Source: Candidatus Gastranaerophilus phascolarcticola (GTDB lineage Bacteria; Cyanobacteriota; Vampirovibrionia; Gastranaerophilales; Gastranaerophilaceae). Taken from it: a stretch of DNA of 64,000 nt. The notes under the pieces were generated by a model. The model ran no database searches, was not told the origin of the DNA, and was given only the letters and a program-made list of their open reading frames with translations. The position numbers and the translations under genes are program-made. Shown here piece by piece: positions 27,474 to 63,843 of this stretch (its first letter is position 1; each line of letters starts with the position of its first letter). Where the stretch lies: contig MOYE01000004.1 of the NCBI GenBank assembly GCA_001899335.1, positions 198,264-262,263 of the forward strand, given 5' to 3'.

Positions 27474-27546
27474 GGGGGATTAGCTCAATTGGTAGAGCAC
27501 CTGCTTTGCACGCAGGGGGTTAGGAGTTCGAGTCTCCTATTCTCCA
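27474..27546 (+). tRNA. tRNA-Ala (anticodon TGC)
   Basis: 73 nt, hand-folded. Acceptor GGGGGAT/ATTCTCC includes the G3:U70 alanine identity pair. D-loop AGCTCAATTGGTAGAGC, anticodon loop CTTTGCAC and T-arm AGGAGTTCGAGTCTCCT. CCA is not encoded. Confidence 0.9.
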
Positions 27547-40164: not shown

Positions 40165-41517
40165 ATGAGTGAATATATTTTAAATGTCATTAATCAAGTG
40201 AAAGAGAAAAATGCGGGTGAAGCACAATTTATTCAGGCGGTTGATGAGGTTTTAGGTTCTATTGCTCCGGTTGTGCTTAAGCACGAGGAGGAATACAAAC
40301 GTCTTGGGCTTTTGGAAAGAATTGTTGAACCGGAAAGAGTTATAAGTTTCAGGGTTCCGTGGGTGGACGATAACGGTCAGACAAGAGTAAACCGTGGTTT
40401 TAGAGTGCAGTTTAACGGCTCAATCGGTCCGTATAAAGGCGGGTTGAGATTTCATCCGACCGTAAACCAAAGTATTATGAAATTCCTTGCGTTTGAACAG
40501 ATTTTTAAGAATGCACTTACCGGATTTCCTATTGGCGGCGGTAAAGGCGGTTCGGATTTTGACCCGAAAGGAAAATCTGATAACGAGATTATGCGTTTTT
40601 GTCAAAGTTTTATGACCGAACTTCAAAAACATATTGGTCAGGATGTTGACGTTCCGGCTGGTGATATCGGTGTTGGGGCTCGTGAGATTGGTTATCTTTT
40701 CGGGCAATACAGACGTATAAAAAATGATTTTGAGGCTGGGGTTTTGACCGGTAAAGGGCTTGTATACGGCGGTTCTTTGGCAAGAAAAGAGGCGACCGGA
40801 TACGGGTTGGTTTACTTTATGCAGGAAATGCTTTGTGCAAACGGTTTGAGTATGCAGAATAAAACTGTGACGATTTCGGGTTCCGGAAACGTTGCGATTT
40901 ATGCGTGTGAAAAGGCGCAGGCTTGCGGCGCAAAAGTTGTAGCGATGAGTGATTCAAATGGCTGCGTTTACGATTTGAACGGAATAAATTTGGATATTGT
41001 TAAAGAGATTAAAGAGGTTAAACGCGGAAGAATCAGGGAATATGTGAACTATGTTCCGGAAGCGGTTTATATGGAAAATAACGCTCCGACACCTGCGGTT
41101 TATACTATTAAGGCTGACGTTGTGCTTCCTTGTGCAACTGAAAATGATATTAACCTTGAGACCGCGAAAATTCTTGTGGCAAACGGACTTATTGCGCTGG
41201 GTGAGGGAGCCAATATGCCGACTAACAAAGAGGCTATAGAATACTTTTTGGAACACGGTGTATTGTTTGCGCCAGCAAAGGCTGCTAATGCCGGCGGCGT
41301 TGCTGTTTCCGCGCTTGAAATGTCACAAAACAGTATGCGTTACTCTTGGACTTTTGAAGAAGTTGATAAAAAACTTGAAAGAATAATGGCAAACATTTTT
41401 GCGGCTGCGAAAAATGCTGCAGAGGAATACGGTTTAGGTACTAATTATCTGGCAGGAGCGAATATTGCGGCGTTTAGAAAAATCGCTGATGCTATGATTG
41501 CACAAGGTGTTATCTAA
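40165..41517 (+). CDS. gdhA: glutamate dehydrogenase
   Basis: 450 aa. Catalytic-lysine region PIGGGKGGSDFDPKGKS and dinucleotide fold GSGNVA. Confidence 0.95.
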   Translation: MSEYILNVINQVKEKNAGEAQFIQAVDEVLGSIAPVVLKHEEEYKRLGLLERIVEPERVISFRVPWVDDNGQTRVNRGFRVQFNGSIGPYKGGLRFHPTVNQSIMKFLAFEQIFKNALTGFPIGGGKGGSDFDPKGKSDNEIMRFCQSFMTELQKHIGQDVDVPAGDIGVGAREIGYLFGQYRRIKNDFEAGVLTGKGLVYGGSLARKEATGYGLVYFMQEMLCANGLSMQNKTVTISGSGNVAIYACEKAQACGAKVVAMSDSNGCVYDLNGINLDIVKEIKEVKRGRIREYVNYVPEAVYMENNAPTPAVYTIKADVVLPCATENDINLETAKILVANGLIALGEGANMPTNKEAIEYFLEHGVLFAPAKAANAGGVAVSALEMSQNSMRYSWTFEEVDKKLERIMANIFAAAKNAAEEYGLGTNYLAGANIAAFRKIADAMIAQGVI

Positions 41518-42371
41518 AGAATTATAATCAATGTGATTAAATAAATGGCAATGAACGATTGGATAACTTTGTCTCTGTAGATGAAATGTACAGGGTCATC
41601 TATTTCTTTTGAGTTGAAAATAAGATAAATAAGGCGGAACATCAGAATTGTGAACGGAATTGTTGTTACATATAGGAACTGGCTGCCTGTTTTTTCGATT
41701 GTTATCGGGTCAAGCATATAGTTGAAGTAAAAAGTAATCGTAAGGATTGCGTTTATTATCACGAAATGTTTTAACAAGCCATTGTCAAACCCTTTTATAG
41801 ATTGACGACAGGTATTATCGGTAAGCATAGCAGATTCTAGGGTTCTTTTAGAGAATGTGAAAAACATTGACAGGAAAAAAGTCAAAAGGATTACGAGCGG
41901 TGACGGTATGACGTTAATAGCCGCGCAGCCGGAAAGTATTCTTAAAATAAACCCGAGAGCTATACATAAAACGTCAACCAGCGCAAGGGTTTTGAGTTTT
42001 AGGGTGTATAAAATGTTCAGTAAAATGTAACTTATTATAATTAACAGGCATAATTTATTTAAACTTCCTGCTAAAATTAATCCGCTGCAAAGCATTATAA
42101 CTAATAAGGAGATTGCAAGTGCGGGTGTAACTTTGCCGCTTGCAATCGGTCGGTTGCATTTTATCGGGTGCAGACGGTCTTTTCGGATATCAATCAGGTC
42201 GTTAAAAATATAGACGACAGAAGAAATAAGGCAGAACGCTGCAAACATAATCGCTGCACGGACGCAGGAGTCGGGCTCTTTAACGAGCATTGAGAAGACC
42301 AGCGGTACAAAGATTATCAAATTTTTTATATAATGGTTTATTCTTATTGTTTTGAGAATTTCTTTGAACAT
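41514..42371 (-). CDS. UbiA-family prenyltransferase (decaprenyl-phosphate phosphoribosyltransferase-like)
   Basis: 285 aa and polytopic. First Asp-rich motif NDLIDIRKDRLHP. Confidence 0.8.
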   Translation of the reverse strand: MFKEILKTIRINHYIKNLIIFVPLVFSMLVKEPDSCVRAAIMFAAFCLISSVVYIFNDLIDIRKDRLHPIKCNRPIASGKVTPALAISLLVIMLCSGLILAGSLNKLCLLIIISYILLNILYTLKLKTLALVDVLCIALGFILRILSGCAAINVIPSPLVILLTFFLSMFFTFSKRTLESAMLTDNTCRQSIKGFDNGLLKHFVIINAILTITFYFNYMLDPITIEKTGSQFLYVTTIPFTILMFRLIYLIFNSKEIDDPVHFIYRDKVIQSFIAIYLITLIIIL

Positions 42372-42373
42372 AT

Positions 42374-43903
42374 TTACCCTCTGATTTTTGAAATGTTACT
42401 TAGTACGGCTGACAACAAAATAAAAATAAAGTAGAAGTTTACCCAATAGAAATATCTGTCCGAGAAAGTTTCGCTAGCGAGACTTTTGAGTGGCGTATTA
42501 GACAGCGCAGCCACGGGTTGACCTGCGTGAGCGGGGCAAGCAGGTGGCGGAGAACTGCTTTTTCTGTTTTTGAAGAATTTTTTCAAGCCAATAGCACTAA
42601 TGCCAATTGCAGTGGTGATTACCAGTGATTGAAAAATCCATTTTGGGCAGAAATTATTTACCAAAGTGAAATTGAATATTGTAATATCAATTTCTCTTAG
42701 GGTAAGAATGTTGAAAATGAGTACAAGTTGGAAAAACAGCCTGTAAAAAATTTCTGTTCCGTGATTATTGGTTACTATTCCGGCAAAAATAAATATGAGA
42801 TACAGATAGTTTTGCGAATAGATGAAACACTCTTTGCTGCCGTAAACGAACAGCAGTATGCTGTTAATAAGAATTATTATGGCTATTGTTGCAAGGAGGT
42901 CGATATTTTTGGTGGATTTAAAGTTTTTGAAAAATATTACCAACGGTAAAATATATAAACTTATACCGACAACCAGATTTTTCCACGAGAAACCGCTGTT
43001 TATTTGAAAATCAGGTATGGTTTCACTATCCCCTGGGATGAGGAATAAATTCGGTGCTAAAATCGGAGCCGAAAACATTTGTACAAAAGTTTCGTTAATC
43101 TTTTCGAAACTGAAGTTGAAATCTAGATATTTAAAGTCTTCAAAGTTGCGTGGTTCACTAAAGGCGTTTCCCAGTTTTTCTAAAAAGAAAGGCGTGTGTA
43201 TGAAACAATATTTTTGCAGCCACGCAAAAAAGACTAATAGCGCGCAAGAAGTGAGAATTATTTTGGCAAAATTTATAAGCCCTTGCTGAATATTTTGCGC
43301 ATAAATCCTCCATAACAGCCAAATAACGGTTATGATAAATGTAATTGCGTTTGATAAGATTATTCCTGTACTAAGTATGCCTAGAAACGAAATGACAAGA
43401 ATATTTTTCCACGACAAGCCGTCGGATTTTTGTGTAAGCCTTATTGCGTAATGCCACAAAAGCAATTGAGAAAATGCTGAAAAAATATAAGTTTCCGGCA
43501 GCGCTGTGAATATCAGCGTTGAAAAACTTATTCCGTATAGTGAGGCAAAAATCAATGATGTGCTTTTATTTTTGGTAAGAGATTTCAAGATTGAAAAAAC
43601 TAAACATACATTTGCACTTGCAATTATTGATTGAAAAACTATGACTGTTCTATGCGGGTCTTTAAAAAAGCTGTCAATTAAAGAAACGACAGGTTGAAGC
43701 AGTATCAGCATTAACGGATGAACCGCGATGCGGTAATGGTTTGCCACACGCTCCGTCAAATCCTTAAAAACACGCGCACAGTCACTTCCAAAGAAAATGT
43801 TATTATCATCAAGAATAAAGGTATTGTTATAACATAGCCAAAACCCTACTGTTATGTATAAAAACAAAAATGCTAGGAATATATTTAGTGTTTTATTATT
43901 CAT
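42374..43903 (-). CDS. polytopic membrane protein (GT-C-like glycosyltransferase candidate) carrying an in-frame repeat-element insertion near the C-terminus
   Basis: 509 aa with many TM helices. The SSSPPPACPAHAGQPVAALSNTPLKSLASETFSD segment is encoded by repeat copy A and is followed by one more TM helix. Confidence 0.55.
   Translation of the reverse strand: MNNKTLNIFLAFLFLYITVGFWLCYNNTFILDDNNIFFGSDCARVFKDLTERVANHYRIAVHPLMLILLQPVVSLIDSFFKDPHRTVIVFQSIIASANVCLVFSILKSLTKNKSTSLIFASLYGISFSTLIFTALPETYIFSAFSQLLLWHYAIRLTQKSDGLSWKNILVISFLGILSTGIILSNAITFIITVIWLLWRIYAQNIQQGLINFAKIILTSCALLVFFAWLQKYCFIHTPFFLEKLGNAFSEPRNFEDFKYLDFNFSFEKINETFVQMFSAPILAPNLFLIPGDSETIPDFQINSGFSWKNLVVGISLYILPLVIFFKNFKSTKNIDLLATIAIIILINSILLFVYGSKECFIYSQNYLYLIFIFAGIVTNNHGTEIFYRLFFQLVLIFNILTLREIDITIFNFTLVNNFCPKWIFQSLVITTAIGISAIGLKKFFKNRKSSSPPPACPAHAGQPVAALSNTPLKSLASETFSDRYFYWVNFYFIFILLSAVLSNISKIRG
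42458..42566 (+). repeat. GC-rich structured repeat element, copy A
   Basis: Aligns with 63336-63455. The core GAGTGGCGTAT.AGACAGCGCAGCCACGGGTTG...GCAAGCAGGTGGCGGAGAACTGCTTT is shared, and the two stems covary. Confidence 0.8.
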
Positions 43904-43916
43904 AAAATTCCCTTTA

Positions 43917-46805
43917 TTAGAAGAGGCTTAACTGTTGTGAATTATCTTTTTCTTTGAAAACTTTTTCAAATTTGCTTAAGTTTAAAAGGTCGTTTTCTAT
44001 TTTTTCCAAAAACGGCGAAATCGGTAATTCGCGCATTAATCCCTGCCACTTGCGCTTTTGCGCGCGTGAAAGGAACAAACGTTCTTCCGCACGTGTCATA
44101 CCAACGTAAAGCAATCGGCGTTCTTCCTCAATTTCGGAAGGCTCTTTTGCGCGGTATAGAGGCAAAATTCCGTCCTCAAGCCCTGTGATAAACACGCATT
44201 TGAATTCCAAACCCTTTGAGGAATGCAGGGTCATAAGCGTGATTCTGTCAGCACGTTTGTCGAGGGTGTCAGCTTCAGTTGACATTGAAACCTCGTGGAT
44301 AAAGTCGTCCTTTGCTCTGTGAGTTTTCGCAAGGACAACGAGGAAATTCCAAATGTTATCCTCGATTTTATCGGCAAATTCTTCTTTCAGTGCTGAAAGC
44401 TGTATATCTACATCCTCATCGTTCAGGCATGAAAGCAGCTTATGAACGGCTTTTTTCTCGCAAAGCGGTTCGTTTGAAAGCGCAACGAACGGCATACCTG
44501 TACGCTGCAATGCCTCAATAAGCGGTGGGAGCTGGGAGGAGGTGCGGTAAAGAATAGCAAAATCTGAGAATGAATAATCGCATTCCTGCCCTGTTGAACG
44601 CTCGGAATCTATTGAAAACAGGCTATGTCCGCCGATAAGATTTTCTATCGTACTTGCGACAAATTCCGCCTCTGCCTTGTCCGTCGGTGCCGTGTGAATT
44701 GTAATTTTATCATGCGGCTTTTCATACATCGAAACAATGTTGAACTCCTGAATCATTTGGTTTGACGCATTAACAATGTTTCCTGTTGAACGGTAATTAT
44801 TTTTAAGGTTTATGACTTTCGTCTGCGGATAATCCTGTGTGAAATTCTTGAAAAATTTGGAATCCCCGCCGCGGAACCCGTAAATTGCCTGATTAGGGTC
44901 GCCGATTGCACAAATTTTGCCATCCTCCGGCACCAGCAGGCGGATTAATTTATATTGATTTTCGTCAATATCTTGATACTCGTCCACTGAAACATATTGA
45001 AAACGCTCTCTGTACATTGCCATAATGTCCGGGTTTTCTTCTAAAAGTTTTACAGTTAGAGTGATAAGTTCATCAAACCCAAGAGCGTTTTCATCCGCAC
45101 AAAGTTCTTTTTCCTGTTCGCTCATAACCCTGAAATCCGGGTGCAAGCCAGCTGTTTCATGATTTTCTTTCAGGATTTCAAAGCATAACGAGTGGAAAGT
45201 ATGTATGTTTAAATCCTTTGCGGTTTCGCCCAAAAGTTTTGTTAAACGTTCGCGCATCTCCTGTGCTGCACGGCGCGTAAAAGTTATTGCAAGACAGTTT
45301 GCTGTTTTAAGCCCTGTATCTGAAATCAGGTGTGCAATTCTGCGGGTTAAAACCGTTGTCTTACCTGAACCGGGACCCGCTACGATTAAAAGTTGTCCGT
45401 GCGTTTCGTTCACGGCAGCCTGCTGTTGTTCGTCAAGCCCTGATTTTTTCGGTTTCTCCGGCGTAATAATCTGTGGCTCCACAACAACTTTTGGTACAAA
45501 TTTTTCAACTGTTTGCATTGGGGCTGCCGGCATGTCAATAAGTTTTAAGTTGACGTACTTTTTGTTTACAAGTTCGTCTTCCTCAAACAATTTTATCACA
45601 CCGTATTCGCCGTCATAACCCGCGTGTTTGATAACTTTTCCCTGGCGGAGGCGCGAAATTCCTTCACCCAATAGCGGCGAAATTTTTGTGATATCGTCAA
45701 CAGGAATTTCGCGCAGTATTGAAAGTTCAGAACCCAGTTTTTGCGTAATCCTTTCGTATTCTGTAACCACGGATTTGCTGCCCACGCCAACGCCTAAAAT
45801 TTCGGAGATAATTTCAGGGAGCGGGACGAGGCTGAACACTTGTCCTGCTGTCGCTGGCGGTGTAAAATCGCCTTTGCGGTCAGAAAGTTCATTGACACGG
45901 TATGAAACCCCGATTGTTAAAGGCTTCCCGCACACCGGACAAATTCCGTTGAGAGCCTTTGTCTCTTCAGGTGTCAGGCAAACATTGCATTTTCTGTGCC
46001 CGTCTTCGTGGTATTTGCCTTCTTCCGGGAAGAATTCAACAGTGCCGACGTAGCCGCTGCCGGTTTTCAAGGCGTTCATAATGCTAAAATAATCAGGATT
46101 AGTGTCAAAAACTGTTGCTTCACGTGCAAGTTTTGCAGGCGAATGCGCGTCAGAATTTGACACAAGGCGGAAACGGTCAAGGCGTGATACGTGCCAATTC
46201 ATTTCAGGATCAGAGGACAGCCCGGTTTCTACGGCAAAAATATGGTCTGATAAATCTTCATAGCATTCTTCAATTGAGTCAAAACCTGATTTTGACCCCA
46301 AAACAGAAAACCACGGGGTCCAAATATGCGCAGGGATTATATAAGCGCCATCACCGGATTCAAGTGTCGTTTCAAGCAAACTTCTTGAATCCAACCCTAA
46401 AATAGGTCTGCCATCAGAAGTTATATTACCGATTGCACCGAGTTTTTGTCGGAAATTTTCTGCGCTTTCCAAATTCGGCATAAAACAAACATGGTGAACT
46501 TTACGTGTTTTATCCCATTTTTTGTAAATAGTTGAAATCTCGACTGATAAAATAAATCTTACCGGTTCTTCGTCGGGGTTAAAAATTGTTTTTTCAATAT
46601 CAGGACGAAGTCTGTACGTGCCCTCATCTGCAGGAACAAGTTTTTCTTTTATTTCGTTAAACCATGCAGGATGCGTGAAGTCACCTGTTGAGATGACGCT
46701 TAATCCCTTTTTCTTTGCCCAAAAAGCGAGGTGTTCAAGGTCGCAGTCACGACTGGTTGCACGCGAATATTTTGAATGAATATGTAAATCTGAATAGAAA
46801 AACAT
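43917..46805 (-). CDS. fusion protein: N-terminal PHP-domain/zinc-finger module (endonuclease Q-like) plus C-terminal UvrD/PcrA-type helicase
   Basis: 962 aa. N-terminal part: SDLHIHSKYSRATS, IPAHIWTPWFS, NSDAHSP, CNVC...CPVCG and GYDGEYG. C-terminal part: AGPGSGKTT, TFTRRAAQEM, VDEYQDID, GDPNQAIYGFRGG, NYRS, HSSKGLEF and VGMTRAEERL. Confidence 0.8.
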   Translation of the reverse strand: MFFYSDLHIHSKYSRATSRDCDLEHLAFWAKKKGLSVISTGDFTHPAWFNEIKEKLVPADEGTYRLRPDIEKTIFNPDEEPVRFILSVEISTIYKKWDKTRKVHHVCFMPNLESAENFRQKLGAIGNITSDGRPILGLDSRSLLETTLESGDGAYIIPAHIWTPWFSVLGSKSGFDSIEECYEDLSDHIFAVETGLSSDPEMNWHVSRLDRFRLVSNSDAHSPAKLAREATVFDTNPDYFSIMNALKTGSGYVGTVEFFPEEGKYHEDGHRKCNVCLTPEETKALNGICPVCGKPLTIGVSYRVNELSDRKGDFTPPATAGQVFSLVPLPEIISEILGVGVGSKSVVTEYERITQKLGSELSILREIPVDDITKISPLLGEGISRLRQGKVIKHAGYDGEYGVIKLFEEDELVNKKYVNLKLIDMPAAPMQTVEKFVPKVVVEPQIITPEKPKKSGLDEQQQAAVNETHGQLLIVAGPGSGKTTVLTRRIAHLISDTGLKTANCLAITFTRRAAQEMRERLTKLLGETAKDLNIHTFHSLCFEILKENHETAGLHPDFRVMSEQEKELCADENALGFDELITLTVKLLEENPDIMAMYRERFQYVSVDEYQDIDENQYKLIRLLVPEDGKICAIGDPNQAIYGFRGGDSKFFKNFTQDYPQTKVINLKNNYRSTGNIVNASNQMIQEFNIVSMYEKPHDKITIHTAPTDKAEAEFVASTIENLIGGHSLFSIDSERSTGQECDYSFSDFAILYRTSSQLPPLIEALQRTGMPFVALSNEPLCEKKAVHKLLSCLNDEDVDIQLSALKEEFADKIEDNIWNFLVVLAKTHRAKDDFIHEVSMSTEADTLDKRADRITLMTLHSSKGLEFKCVFITGLEDGILPLYRAKEPSEIEEERRLLYVGMTRAEERLFLSRAQKRKWQGLMRELPISPFLEKIENDLLNLSKFEKVFKEKDNSQQLSLF

Positions 46806-62534: not shown

Positions 62535-62915
62535 ATGACAAAATTTAAGGCACAAAGTTTCAAACAAAAAATCGAAAATGCTCGCCACGGGATTAATCTT
62601 GCGCTACGCGCCGAGAAAAATCTACGGGTTCATAGCGGGGTCGCCGGACTTGTTGTCATTGCGGGTTTAATTCTGCACGTCGGAAGTGTGAAACTTTGCA
62701 TTTTACTGTTGACAATAGCACTTGTCGTGCTTGCTGAAATGCTTAATTCTGCCCTGGAGTTTTCAATCGACGCTTTATATAAAAATAAGTATTCCCGACT
62801 TGTGAAATTTGCAAAAGACATTTCAGCAGGAGCTGTTTTATTTGTGTCTTTCATATCCGTTGTCATAGGAATACTTATCTTCGTACCTGAATTATTGAAA
62901 TTATTAGCCAACTAA
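62535..62915 (+). CDS. dgkA: diacylglycerol/undecaprenol kinase (DgkA family)
   Basis: 126 aa with three TM helices and EMLNSALEFSID. Conserved order pgpH-ybeY-dgkA. Confidence 0.85.
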   Translation: MTKFKAQSFKQKIENARHGINLALRAEKNLRVHSGVAGLVVIAGLILHVGSVKLCILLLTIALVVLAEMLNSALEFSIDALYKNKYSRLVKFAKDISAGAVLFVSFISVVIGILIFVPELLKLLAN

Positions 62916-63101
62916 AGCGTTAATTTCATCAACCATAGCGTCAGCGTCAAAACCGTGAACTTTTGCGCCTGCTTCAAGGTTTTCAAAATGTGCTGCTGCA
63001 CAACCAATACAACCTAAACCGTATTTTCTGAATACTTCTACACTTTGAGGACATTGGTTTACGATGTCCATTATGTTCATATCTTTTGAAATTTTACCCA
63101 T
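62904..63101 (-). CDS. DUF1858 / hybrid-cluster-protein-associated redox disulfide domain protein
   Basis: 65 aa. MNIMDIVNQCPQSVEVFRKYGLGCIGCAAAHFENLEAGAKVHG. Confidence 0.75.
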   Translation of the reverse strand: MGKISKDMNIMDIVNQCPQSVEVFRKYGLGCIGCAAAHFENLEAGAKVHGFDADAMVDEINALVG

Positions 63102-63171: not shown

Positions 63172-63357
63172 ATGGAATTTTTCAAAAATCTGTTTACAAA
63201 TGATAACAGTATTATAGGTCTGTGCGGGTTTGAAGAAGATGACGATTTGAATATAATTTTTCCTGATTGTAATTACAAACCGCCCGTAAATTTGATGTAC
63301 AAAAACCACGAACATTTGAAAAATATTTTTTGTATGTCCGAGGAAATCTCGCGATAA
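63172..63357 (+). CDS. doubtful small ORF (61 aa)
   Basis: ORF only. Its last 7 codons and stop lie inside repeat copy B, so the reading frame may be fortuitous. Confidence 0.25.
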   Translation: MEFFKNLFTNDNSIIGLCGFEEDDDLNIIFPDCNYKPPVNLMYKNHEHLKNIFCMSEEISR

Positions 63358-63455
63358 GGAACGTGAGCGAGATTTCGGAGTGGCGTATGAGACAGCGCAG
63401 CCACGGGTTGGCACACGTGAGTGTGGCAAGCAGGTGGCGGAGAACTGCTTTACTG
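63336..63455 (+). repeat. GC-rich structured repeat element, copy B (candidate structured RNA or MITE/REP-like element)
   Basis: Stem 1 is GAAATCTCGC/GCGAGATTTC with a 14-nt loop. Stem 2 is CACAC-GTGA-GTGTG. The core is identical to copy A except for one base. Confidence 0.8.
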
Positions 63456-63552: not shown

Positions 63553-63843
63553 ATGGTCGAAAAAGCACAATTCAATCCATTTGCATATCAGACAGCGCCG
63601 TTGAATCAGGTGCAATATACTGGAACACCTCAGCCGGTTGCAGAACCTCAACCACAGGTTAAGAACTTTGGGTTTGCTGCCCGTCCGCAAAAACAAACTT
63701 ATGCTCCTCAAAGTTCTGGTGATGTTGACCATAACTTTGTGAAAAATACATTTGCTTATGTGCCGTTTACAAATTCACCTGTAAGCAATACAGATTATGA
63801 CGATAGCGATTATCGCGGACGCGGCGTTTATTGTTGTGCATAA
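63553..63843 (+). CDS. hypothetical Pro/Gln-rich small protein (96 aa)
   Basis: ORF with a low-complexity PQ-rich centre and a C-terminal ...RGRGVYCCA. No family recognised. Confidence 0.4.
   Translation: MVEKAQFNPFAYQTAPLNQVQYTGTPQPVAEPQPQVKNFGFAARPQKQTYAPQSSGDVDHNFVKNTFAYVPFTNSPVSNTDYDDSDYRGRGVYCCA

Follow-up and report, generated by a model that had tools for sequence, protein, structure and literature searches.

Background

Classical MITEs are defined by terminal inverted repeats together with fixed target-site duplications and are usually AT rich. In REP systems the genome encodes a cognate tnpA-REP (RAYT), in most cases with REPs flanking the gene, and the insertion of repeats into genes without loss of the gene has until now been best known from Rickettsia. 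Rickettsia palindromic elements (RPEs) are inserted in frame in genes (PMC10969869). REPs are defined by a GT[AG]G tetranucleotide located 0-2 nt 5' of the foot of a hairpin, and in-frame REP insertions have been described in cyanobacterial genes (PMC6006769). Pairing between a guide and a cleavage site is known in both IS608 and REP systems (PMC3201880, PMC8266576), and BOX elements are modular, with ORFs on both strands (PMC3049150).

Here, we report two sequences that, with a probability we put at roughly 70%, are copies of a non-autonomous, hairpin-structured mobile repeat and are therefore selfish mobile DNA and not a dedicated RNA gene. The family to which they belong is probably an undescribed small hairpin-forming mobile repeat that is non-autonomous and specific to the Gastranaerophilales, non-photosynthetic relatives of cyanobacteria. 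Copy expansion, presence and absence at orthologous sites, in-frame residence in both orientations and unrelated neighbors together indicate a dispersed insertional repeat. On the best reading, by analogy, the element behaves like the RPEs and is built like REP or BOX elements.

Two copies of the element in the window

The window, meaning the whole 64,000-nt stretch of DNA that was analyzed, contains two copies of the element. Both are on the plus strand, in agreement with the earlier note, which had placed two copies here in the same orientation, and their limits are refined as follows.

42457-42562, plus strand: copy A, full-length element, TGTCCGAG ... CTGCTTTT
42465-42486, plus strand: 5' hairpin of copy A, AAAGTTTCGC / GCGAGACTTT, with a short loop
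42510-42548, plus strand: 3' hairpin of copy A, GCCAC ... CCTGC-GTGA-GCGGG ... GTGGC
42549-42562, plus strand: 3' tail of copy A, GGAGAA-CTGC-TTTT, directly after the 3' hairpin
63335-63452, plus strand: copy B, full-length element with a type-1 3' unit, TGTCCGAG ... CTGCTTTA
63343-63376, plus strand: 5' hairpin of copy B, arms at 63343-63352 and 63367-63376
63400-63438, plus strand: 3' hairpin of copy B, GCCAC / GGG / TTG / G / CACAC-GTGA-GTGTG / G / CAA / GCAG / GTGGC
63439-63452, plus strand: 3' tail of copy B, GGAGAA-CTGC-TTTA, directly after the 3' hairpin

Exactly two occurrences of a 33-nt core are present in the window, where 100 shuffles gave an expectation of 0, and a profile search of the whole window detected no third copy. 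Copies A and B have a G+C content of 57%, compared with 36.7% for the window. Copy B is intergenic, with a DUF1858 gene (62904-63101, minus strand) on one side and a 96-aa ORF (63553-63843, plus strand) on the other. Its 5' hairpin is bordered by CCGAG on the 5' side and GGAGTGG on the 3' side, and the 14-nt loop of this hairpin, GATAAGGAACGTGA, is found again in many copies of the family. A GCAG-type tetranucleotide context (AGACAGCGCA) lies 5' of the 3' hairpin of copy B, and the GCAG tetranucleotide is present in both window copies. The 5' hairpin of copy A includes one T.G wobble, which is paired on the plus strand only. The base-pair swaps previously read between the two copies are correct for both stems. 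In stem 1 these are A-T to G-C, G-C to A-T and T.G to C-G, with loops of 4 nt and 14 nt; in stem 2 they are C-G to A-T, G-C to A-T and T.G to C-G, with the same GTGA loop in both copies.

A modular family in Gastranaerophilales genomes

The earlier description of a two-copy element holds for the window only and not for the family, which has at least 13-20 copies per assembly. The copy-number expansion that had been proposed as a check was looked for and found, with ~55 further copies, all of which are in Gastranaerophilales/Melainabacteria genomes (MAGs) and gut metagenomes. At least 13 copies are present in one MAG and ~20 in one gut assembly, which also contains contigs with 98.9-99.7% identity to the window. 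Structurally, one to three hairpin units follow one another in a direct array. The 5' hairpin unit (TGTCCGAG-hairpin-YGAGTGGCGTAT) is optional, the 3' unit (TTAGACAGCG(C/T)AG-long irregular hairpin-CGGAGAACTGCTTT(T/A)) is obligatory and has a central hairpin that exists in at least three exchangeable versions, and some copies carry an extra unit. A short form of 62 nt consists of the 3' unit only, and all short forms begin at the same nucleotide. The same core hairpin is also found in other repeat contexts, namely a tandem 129-nt array after the SRP RNA gene (L008), after rpsU (L013) and in a 23S-5S spacer (L026).

An Rfam 15 search of the window gave a tRNA as the sole match at gathering score and, at E<=10, nothing relevant on copy B, on the type-2 and short copies of L012 or on the variant array of L008. 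No Rfam family matched either window copy or the variants, at gathering score or at permissive E-values; the earlier note had likewise seen no match to a riboswitch, tmRNA, SRP, RNase P, 6S or group II domain V consensus. Pattern scans of viral contigs returned no matches to the element. Word-index searches for proteins carrying an element-encoded peptide gave no candidates, and an exhaustive search gave only spurious tandem-repeat translations.

Fold and covariation across the family

Selection for structure in the family is real. Across the family, 98.4% of cells in the 5' hairpin are paired and both sides have changed in 9 of the 10 pairs, a level reached in 0 of 500 shuffles, while 99.8% of cells in the 3' hairpin are paired with both sides changed in five pairs; many of these compensatory cells are inherited within subfamilies, so that the independent events are fewer than the counts suggest. 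The 3' hairpin is built from a 5-bp basal stem (GCCAC/GTGGC), a 3/4-nt internal loop, 3 bp, a purine mismatch and a further 5-6 bp. Pairing of the basal stem is complete in 24 of 25 full-length copies, with the covariants GCCGC/GCGGC, GCCAT/ATGGC, GCCGT/ACGGC and GTCGC/GCGAC. An unpaired core had been proposed for the element. The two window copies do share invariant segments, but part of the proposed core is not unpaired, as GCCAC/GTGGC and TTG/CAA are paired parts of the 3' hairpin. A mutually exclusive helix between GCCAC and the upstream GTGGC had also been suggested. However, where GCCAC has changed, the upstream segment is usually still GTGGC, and one compensatory case stands against six uncompensated disruptions, so this helix finds no support.

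Each hairpin is bracketed by NNAG on the 5' side and NGAG on the 3' side. The tetranucleotide 5' of the foot of the 3' hairpin is GCAG in 30 of 49 cases, GTAG in 14 and ATAG in 2, with only the terminal AG constant. The sense strand folds more stably than the antisense strand in all 22 of 22 full copies and in 45 of 49 3' units, an asymmetry that is the same with RNA or DNA folding parameters, and G.T wobbles outnumber A.C mismatches by 8 to 2.

Other pairings were tried and rejected. An H-type pseudoknot between AAGCAG and CTGCTT is invariant, its sole change breaks the pairing, and type-2 copies do not have the 5' partner. A closing helix (TGTC/GACA) and a pairing of TCCG with CGGA showed, on inspection, no covariation among the 5' end variants. 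Finally, GTGGCGAAGAAC has what we take to be a resemblance to the bulged strand of the Kt-7 K-turn; the K-turn was dropped, as the partner strand is without the G.A pairs and other variants lose the motif.

Filled and empty sites

In comparison with the orthologous gene in L060, the window contains 108 additional nucleotides at copy A (42457-42564, plus strand) that are missing from L060. Because both junctions carry a repeated TCTGT (or TC), the limits of this insert can slide by up to 5 nt; the empty site in L060 reads AATAGAAATATC followed directly by TGTTTTTGAAG. At the same junction the window and L050 differ by 9 nt. A second case is the pair L061 and L062, in which a 120-nt insertion is polymorphic between genes that are 98.8% identical, and the TGT at the 5' end of the L061 copy is within the inserted DNA. 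A duplication of 45 nt lies next to the L061 insertion. The window itself is the empty partner at two further sites.

1496-1510, no strand assigned: empty intergenic site; the orthologous spot in L024 has a 62-65-nt short copy (L024 5995-6059)
44705-44716, minus strand: empty site, between CAT and GAT, in a PHP-UvrD helicase gene (43917-46805)

At the second of these, the position is occupied in the helicase ortholog of L023 by a full-length type-2 copy of 117 nt, in frame, and the site is empty in five orthologs, including that of the window. The same L023 helicase has a second, short copy in a linker region that corresponds to approximately 45452-45529 of the window. L056 and L024 provide a further filled and empty pair. 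Since orthologous sites are found both filled and empty, insertion is proven, and new copies insert at many unrelated sites. In three clean filled and empty pairs, the junction repeats are 2-5 nt, 2 nt and 1 nt, and the pairs gave no fixed target-site duplication or conserved target. The left flanks of 25 full and 20 short copies have nothing in common beyond T-richness. No terminal inverted repeats were found: only the internal hairpin arms are inverted, and the ends TGTCCGAG and CTGCTTTT are not complementary.

Copies inside genes

Copy A lies antisense within a gene on the opposite strand.

42374-43903, minus strand: host gene of copy A, encoding a 509-aa multi-pass membrane protein with no Pfam match

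The host gene is read through copy A in frame as KSSSPPPACPAHAGQPVAALSNTPLKSLASETFSD, and the insert is a clean, 36-codon in-frame insertion of 108 nt that is absent from homologues of the gene. The gene is translationally coupled to a UbiA-family gene (41514-42371), and downstream of the insert it encodes a conserved C-terminal helix, RYFYW...SKIRG; therefore, the insert must be translated. Further in-frame copies are found in the L023 helicase (twice) and in L035, L051, L009, L034, L038 and L061. Overall, 11 of 48 copies are within ORFs, in both orientations and in different frames. The element is GC rich and is without stop codons in several frames on both strands, so that insertions with a length that is a multiple of three survive in genes and are translated as 21-40 extra residues. 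Copy A is one such surviving insertion, and copy B is an ordinary intergenic copy.

The family shows ongoing remodeling of Melainabacteria genes by a small repeat, in which helicases, membrane proteins and others gain 21-40 residues without being destroyed. The Melainabacteria are uncultured gut relatives of cyanobacteria, and to our knowledge their genome dynamics are almost unstudied. Copies of the element will mislead gene callers and noncoding RNA searches in these genomes, and they are strain-level markers for gut metagenomes.

Comparison with described repeats

Similar to the RPEs, the element is a hairpin-forming repeat of ~100-150 nt with dozens of copies, is often located in frame in unrelated protein-coding genes, where it is translated as extra peptide segments, and has no classical transposon signature (PMC10969869). 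However, the hosts differ, being Alphaproteobacteria (Rickettsia) for the RPEs and Melainabacteria for the element, and unlike an RPE the element consists of hairpin units that are separable and directly arrayed, has central modules that can be interchanged and exists in a 62-nt short form. It also occurs in ORFs in both orientations and several frames and, unlike the RPEs, gives no single conserved peptide. We therefore treat the relation as one of analogy in behavior and not of membership.

With REPs the element shares short, high-copy, GC-rich imperfect hairpins with conserved bulges and a conserved 5' tetranucleotide ending in AG, a CT-containing site nearby that is complementary to the tetranucleotide, and a strand-specific structure (PMC6006769, PMC8266576). 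The tetranucleotide is mostly GCAG, however, and not GT[AG]G in all copies; a REP has a basal stem of 7-20 fully paired nucleotides with an optional bulge and second stem, whereas that of the element has 5 bp; the units form direct arrays and not inverted doublets (BIME/REPIN); and REPs are extragenic, in contrast to the in-ORF copies described above. The element is not a canonical REP. Nor is it a classical MITE. Like the Correia, Nezha and ERIC-like MITEs it is small, non-autonomous, structured and multi-copy, with insertion polymorphism and effects on neighboring ORFs, but it is GC rich and lacks terminal inverted repeats and a fixed target duplication. The earlier label of a REP/MITE-like element was thus right in kind, as this is a dispersed repeat, and wrong if either class is meant in its strict sense, given the lack of terminal inverted repeats and the GCAG tetranucleotide.

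The BOX elements of Streptococcus pneumoniae, and likewise RUP and SPRITE, have in common with the element separable sub-sequences, extensive predicted secondary structure, occasional fusion with host ORFs, ORFs on both strands and an uncertain mechanism of mobilization (PMC3049150). BOX elements, however, are AT rich, belong to a Firmicute and have terminal inverted repeats resembling an IS element, which the element lacks; the tandem amplification of their repeated module boxB is another difference. The ends of IS200/IS605 elements resemble the element in having subterminal hairpins on one active strand without terminal inverted repeats or target duplication. In IS608, a 4-nt guide 5' of the hairpin foot has its complement 10 nt beyond the foot on the 3' side at the right end (PMC3201880). 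In the element, GCAG lies 5' of the foot and CTGC ends 11 nt 3' of it, but the pair never covaries. Unlike IS200/IS605, the element has no conserved target tetranucleotide 5' of its left end, its left and right hairpins are unlike each other, the IS608 pairing rule does not fit, and no parent carrying tnpA/tnpB was seen. Given its clean recent filled and empty pairs and the NNAG/NGAG grammar of its hairpins, the family is a tractable case for how REP- and RPE-type repeats move without inverted repeats or target duplications.

Several more distant classes were set aside. HDV-like, twister, hammerhead, pistol and hatchet ribozymes do not fit in helix order or core motifs, and none gave an Rfam match; group II intron domain V, integron attC sites, template and variable repeats of DGRs and prophage att sites do not fit in anatomy and copy number; and a riboswitch or cis-regulatory leader does not fit copies that have no constant position or orientation, lie inside ORFs and precede unrelated genes.

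Alternative explanations

A functional structured RNA was one of the two readings offered by the earlier note. In that case, the window would contain two gene copies of a dedicated noncoding or cis-regulatory RNA, such as a small RNA, a riboswitch-like leader or a ribozyme, a reading to which we attach only a very faint chance. It would account for helices that covary around invariant junction nucleotides and for a GC-rich sequence in an AT-rich genome, and copy B both folds far better than shuffled sequence (z = -4.7) and has a promoter-like site ~80 nt upstream on the same strand. However, copy A is a recent insertion antisense in conserved coding sequence and folds no better than shuffled sequence (z = -0.7), the Rfam searches gave no match even at E<=10, and the proposed switch helix and pseudoknot are without covariation support. 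Dozens of copies lie in random orientation to genes, and the ten downstream genes, which include glutamine synthetase, histidine kinase, RsgA, exonuclease, LpxI and a nucleoside transporter, have no common function. The structure is selected, yet copy expansion, empty sites, copies in ORFs and unrelated neighbors point to an insertional repeat. Unlikely as well is a repeat that serves its host, the hairpins being either sites of binding or processing, with a nucleoid protein, gyrase, an RNase or a ribosomal protein as possible partners, or terminator, attenuator or RBS-donating cassettes that are selected at each locus, as has been proposed for some REP/BIME, ERIC and SPRITE elements. The recurrence of the core hairpin after the SRP RNA gene, after rpsU and in the 23S-5S spacer is consistent with such a role, as are a weak terminator-like match at the end of copy A, the enrichment of copies in divergent, promoter-side spacers (13 copies, with convergent spacers nearly devoid of them at 1) and the position of the GGAG of the element 9 nt before a start codon at some loci (L054, L034). 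Against this, copies occur in either orientation (14 sense and 12 antisense to local transcription, no bias) and also inside ORFs, no promoter-like site was found inside the element, neighboring genes are unrelated, and most copies are not where a terminator is needed, with a co-oriented gene upstream of only 12 of 35. In addition, near-identical genomes differ in the presence of copies, which are therefore dispensable. On the reading that we favor, any effects on neighboring genes are secondary, as where the GGAG of the element is the RBS of an abutting start codon.

Mobility through RNA is also improbable. Here the transcribed element would fold as RNA and be reverse-transcribed into T-rich sites, as a bacterial SINE-like retro-element, with the short form arising as a separate, shorter transcript or through processing. 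Several features are of the kind expected: GNRA loops (GTGA, GGGA, GAGA, GCGA), G.U wobbles and a conserved 14-nt loop closed by tandem G.A are all confined to the sense strand, a T-run whose length varies forms the 3' end, in some copies with extra A/T (CTGCTTTT, CTGCTTTA, CTGCTTTATT), junction microhomology varies from 1 to 5 nt at T-rich targets, and a 3'-only short form exists. However, the hairpins fit single-stranded DNA equally well, and DNA parameters give the same strand asymmetry. Moreover, the short forms share a start nucleotide and are not randomly 5'-truncated, a poly-A-type tail is lacking, a reverse transcriptase was not seen close to any copy, and we know of no such bacterial element. 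Very unlikely, too, is a reading in which the conserved fold is itself active as RNA, whether as a new RNA that processes itself or as a small, SINE-like RNA that is retro-mobile. Such an RNA would travel as RNA or would let the host tolerate insertions, and it would explain the ragged U-rich 3' end as well as the GNRA loops, the sense-only wobbles and the invariant junction nucleotides. If this reading were true, the element would be the first of its kind in bacteria.

Candidate mobilizing machinery

If the element is mobile DNA, as we favor, the machinery would be supplied in trans, would recognize the folded sense strand and would probably mobilize the element as a folded single strand. All copies observed have kept their hairpins, which explains why the stems of subfamilies differ by compensatory changes and the flanking recognition segments are invariant. 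The leading candidate, which we put forward tentatively and with considerable doubt, is a HUH/Y1 nuclease of the RAYT/IS200 type that acts on single-strand DNA. For this enzyme, the GCAG/GTAG 5' of the hairpin foot would act as a guide to the complementary CTGC, which lies 7 nt beyond the foot on its 3' side. This GCAG/CTGC pairing shows no informative variation, and CTGC is kept in GTAG and ATAG copies. A phmmer search of ORFs of at least 50 aa in the window and ~55 loci (~0.5 Mb, a small genome sample) gave no match to E. coli RayT, and a crude regular expression for an HUH...Y motif gave none in the window and flanking loci (again ~0.5 Mb, which covers little of each genome). The copies adjoin no recurrent transposase, and all-against-all clustering of ORFs near copies revealed no autonomous partner, returning only a large pilin-like paralog family and syntenic orthologs; ORFs between paired copies are ordinary genes.

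Two further observations count against the explanation that we favor. The absence of an orientation bias relative to genes is unlike the prediction of a strictly lagging-strand-targeted, IS608-like process. In addition, three features are more typical of RNA than of DNA, namely GNRA tetraloops, ragged T-rich 3' ends and what may be a U.U to C.C change within the 14-nt loop.

The element in the window and the size of its family

Two copies of a GC-rich hairpin repeat were located in the window sequence:

~42457-42562, + strand, copy A
63335-63452, + strand, copy B

A 33-nt central segment occurs exactly twice in the window, as compared to no occurrences in 100 shuffles, and a profile search of the entire window found no third copy. 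The copies are 57% G+C versus 36.7% for the window. The stems proposed in the earlier note, with their four double compensatory changes and two wobble-to-Watson-Crick changes, are as described there, as are the GTGA loop that is invariant between copies A and B and the loop that measures 4 nt in one copy and 14 nt in the other. A search of the window against Rfam 15 at gathering scores returned only a tRNA (27474-27546), and nothing matched the element locus at E<=10.

The count of two copies holds for the window alone: the element is a large family, with dozens of loci in genomes and metagenomes. A degenerate pattern built on the 3' half recovered 24 true loci from a species-representative genome collection, all of them in Melainabacteria/Gastranaerophilales MAGs, one of which carries the label Fusobacterium; six GC-rich matches in other phyla were chance matches within coding sequence. 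A second pattern recovered 26 true loci from metagenomes, the majority from one human-gut assembly that also holds contigs 98.9-99.7% identical to the window. Strict patterns gave at least 13 copies in one MAG and approximately 20 in the gut assembly, and pattern scans of viral contigs gave none.

The full form spans ~104-120 nt and consists of TGTCCGAG, hairpin 1, YGAGTGGCGTATTAGACAGCG(C/T)A, a long irregular hairpin and GGAGAACTGCTTT(T/A). A short form of ~62 nt, at least as common, is the 3' unit alone and always starts (T)TAGACAGCG. From its foot of 5 bp (GCCAC/GTGGC), the long hairpin continues through an internal loop, 3 bp, a purine-purine mismatch and 5-6 bp to a loop, and its interior exists in three versions between identical invariant flanks:

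Type 1: ACGGGTTG, stem, GNRA or triloop, stem, CAAGCAGGT (copies A and B)
Type 2: stem with cap GGTTCA or GAGTCA
Type 3: GGTGCGG, stem, GTGA, stem, ACGGCAG

Some copies (loci L005, L006 and L055) contain a further nested unit, CTCTGCCGAG-hairpin-TGAGAGG. Every unit shares a bracket of 5' NNAG (CGAG, CGAG, G[C/T]AG) and 3' NGAG (YGAGTGG, TGAGAGG, CGGAGAA). The 3' end of the element is ragged (TTTT, TTTA or TTTATT), and terminal inverted repeats are absent.

Filled and empty sites

Comparison with related loci shows that the element is inserted DNA. Copy A lies antisense within ORF 42374-43903 (minus strand), whose membrane protein product contains exactly 36 residues (RKSSSPPPACPAHAGQPVAALSNTPLKSLASETFSD) that its homologues P0002 and P0003 lack, while all three share the C-terminal helix that follows the insert (RYFYW...SKIRG) and an overlap with the start of the next gene. 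In the DNA, the empty site of the orthologous gene in L060 is AATAGAAATATC|TGTTTTTGAAG, to which the window adds 108 nt. A 9-nt difference at the 3' junction of copy A separates the window from the near-identical strain L050 (P0001): relative to window 42559-42567, L050 8740-8750 lacks TTTTTCTGT, or three codons. Slippage between T-runs may have deleted these codons, or the difference is a vestige of the insertion itself.

Elsewhere in the same gene family, P0008 (L061) carries an independent copy at a different site and in a different frame. The L062 gene is 98.8% identical to that of L061 and has none of the 120 nt, so that the copy was either gained very recently or precisely lost. The L061 gene (6001-7572) also contains, 32 nt downstream of the insertion, a tandem duplication of 45 nt (15 residues, LLLFTFIQEAAFFHA); it is found only in the genome that also bears the element insertion, and its presence there could be coincidental or a side effect of insertion.

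The L023 ortholog of the window PHP-UvrD helicase is an intact 1034-aa ORF with two copies, a short one in the linker between the domains and a full type-2 copy of 117 nt exactly between two codons, the latter site being empty in five orthologs, including the window. The window gene (43917-46805, minus strand) encodes a 962-aa protein in which an N-terminal PHP-like region is fused to a UvrD-type helicase, and its relatives tolerate repeat insertions in the inter-domain linker and in a helicase surface segment. The site of a short copy in locus L024 is empty in the window (~1500) and in L048, and L056 has a copy where L024 is empty. Copies within ORFs add 63, 108, 117 or 120 nt, in each case a multiple of three, as expected under selection. 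At the junctions compared, 2-5, 2 and 1 nt are shared, with no fixed target duplication and no conserved target besides T-richness.

Structure and strand

The claim that structure is under selection is borne out by covariation across the family, bearing in mind for all of these counts that many copies belong to shared subfamilies, so that independent compensatory events are fewer than the cells imply: in the 5' hairpin (25 copies) 98.4% of cells are paired and nine of ten pairs have changes on both sides, and in type-1 3' units (n=28) 99.8% of cells are paired, with double changes at five pairs. For the 5' hairpin, no shuffles reach these values and slid controls collapse. The foot helix covaries across types (GCCAC/GTGGC, GCCGC/GCGGC, GCCAT/ATGGC, GCCGT/ACGGC and GTCGC/GCGAC), with every pair formed in 24 of 25 full copies. 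The alternative helix with upstream GTGGC, also proposed earlier, fares poorly, with one compensatory case against six uncompensated disruptions and only wobbles maintaining pairing elsewhere. A putative GCAG/CTGC pseudoknot is invariant, leaving no variation to support pairing.

The sense strand is the more stable in all 22 full copies (-44.0 versus -35.4 kcal/mol with RNA parameters; -25.9 versus -20.2 with DNA parameters) and in 45 of 49 3' units. It is G-rich (841 G versus 528 C), and G.T wobbles outnumber A.C mismatches eight to two. Selection on structure is real, and acts on one strand.

Genomic context

Among 48 non-redundant copies, 37 were scored intergenic, six antisense and five sense within ORFs; copy B, scored in an ORF solely through a spurious 93-aa frame, is treated here as intergenic. 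In-ORF copies occupy differing reading frames. Thirteen intergenic copies lie between divergent genes versus one between convergent genes, and co-directional spacers hold nine sense and six antisense copies, indicating that orientation is unbiased with respect to transcription but that placement favours 5' regions. The genes downstream are unrelated in function, which rules out a riboswitch-type role. Where a start codon directly adjoins the element, as at a few loci, the element's GGAG falls at Shine-Dalgarno distance. There is no promoter-like site within the element, and the end of copy A gives a weak terminator-like match.

Around copy B, a putative 61-aa ORF (63172-63357, plus strand) extends into its 5' end, and a putative 96-aa ORF without a Pfam match lies downstream (63553-63843, plus strand), proline/glutamine-rich in its N-terminal half and ending ...RGRGVYCCA. 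In L045, two sense-oriented full copies (239-357 and 1276-1391) flank an EamA-type transporter gene, and the 3' copy supplies that ORF's last seven codons and stop (LSEDFSR*).

Mobilization and relation to known repeats

The earlier note had allowed for either a functional RNA or a REP/MITE-like repeat, and it is the latter kind that stands: the element is a mobile repeat family, not a novel RNA gene. It behaves like the Rickettsia palindromic elements, hairpin repeats that are translated in frame within unrelated genes (PMC10969869), and its construction recalls REP/BIME (PMC6006769) and modular BOX elements (PMC3049150). By their defining tests it is neither a MITE nor a canonical REP, and full-text searches turned up no account of repeats like these in Melainabacteria.

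No recurrent transposase-like gene lies near the copies; the sole gene family that recurs there consists of pilin-like paralogs, and the ORFs that lie between paired copies are ordinary genes. Neither a search with E. coli RayT nor a scan for HUH/Y motifs gave a match in the window and all loci, ~0.5 Mb of partial genomes. The anatomy resembles that of single-strand systems: the hairpins would be recognised on one strand, the tetranucleotide 5' of the foot ends in AG, and its complement CTGC ends 11 nt from the foot on the 3' side. The corresponding distance to the right cleavage site of IS608 is 10 nt, and that site base-pairs with the 4 nt on the 5' side of the foot (PMC3201880); REP systems pair the AG of GTAG with a CT at the cleavage site (PMC8266576); and REP insertions that keep the reading frame are reported in cyanobacteria (PMC6006769). 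Against membership stand a tetranucleotide that is mostly GCAG, a short basal stem, the direct arrays of units, the lack of a conserved left-flank target and a guide pair that does not covary. On balance, mobilization by a HUH/RAYT-type route is possible, though less likely than not. An RNA-mediated route appears improbable, and the remaining, larger share of probability falls to another mechanism. The chief value of the family is as a clean, currently active example from which to learn how such repeats move.

Related hairpins and further repeats

The core hairpin also occurs with different flanks at an SRP RNA gene (L008), rpsU (L013) and a 23S-5S spacer (L026). In L008 (4045-4340), a 129-nt unit that joins it to a second, AT-rich hairpin is repeated 2.3 times in tandem; this array, which has no Rfam match, directly follows the SRP RNA gene and precedes ispF. 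Similar units are present in L027, L013 (4715-4830, with single units after rpsU) and L018 (100-200). In L026 (93-150) the hairpin (GCGTAGCCACGGGTTG...CAAGCAGGTGGCGGAG) lies ~15 nt past the 23S 3' end.

The paralogous pilin-like genes (L017 ~5985, L019 ~1030, and also L007, L020, L029 and L056) encode a prepilin-type N-terminus (FTMAEILLSLTIIGVVAAITLP) and a DUF1566-like C-terminus. Homopolymeric tracts of 10-14 G at their 5' ends make them candidates for slipped-strand phase variation. In L006/L007/L056 and L020/L022/L029, other GC-rich hairpin-forming repeats (e.g., GTCATCCCGAATTTATTTCGGGATCTGTC and CAGATGCTGAAACAAGTTCAGCATGACA) lie in frame, after the poly-G tract and ahead of the mature pilin N-terminus, and these genomes probably contain further in-frame repeat families.
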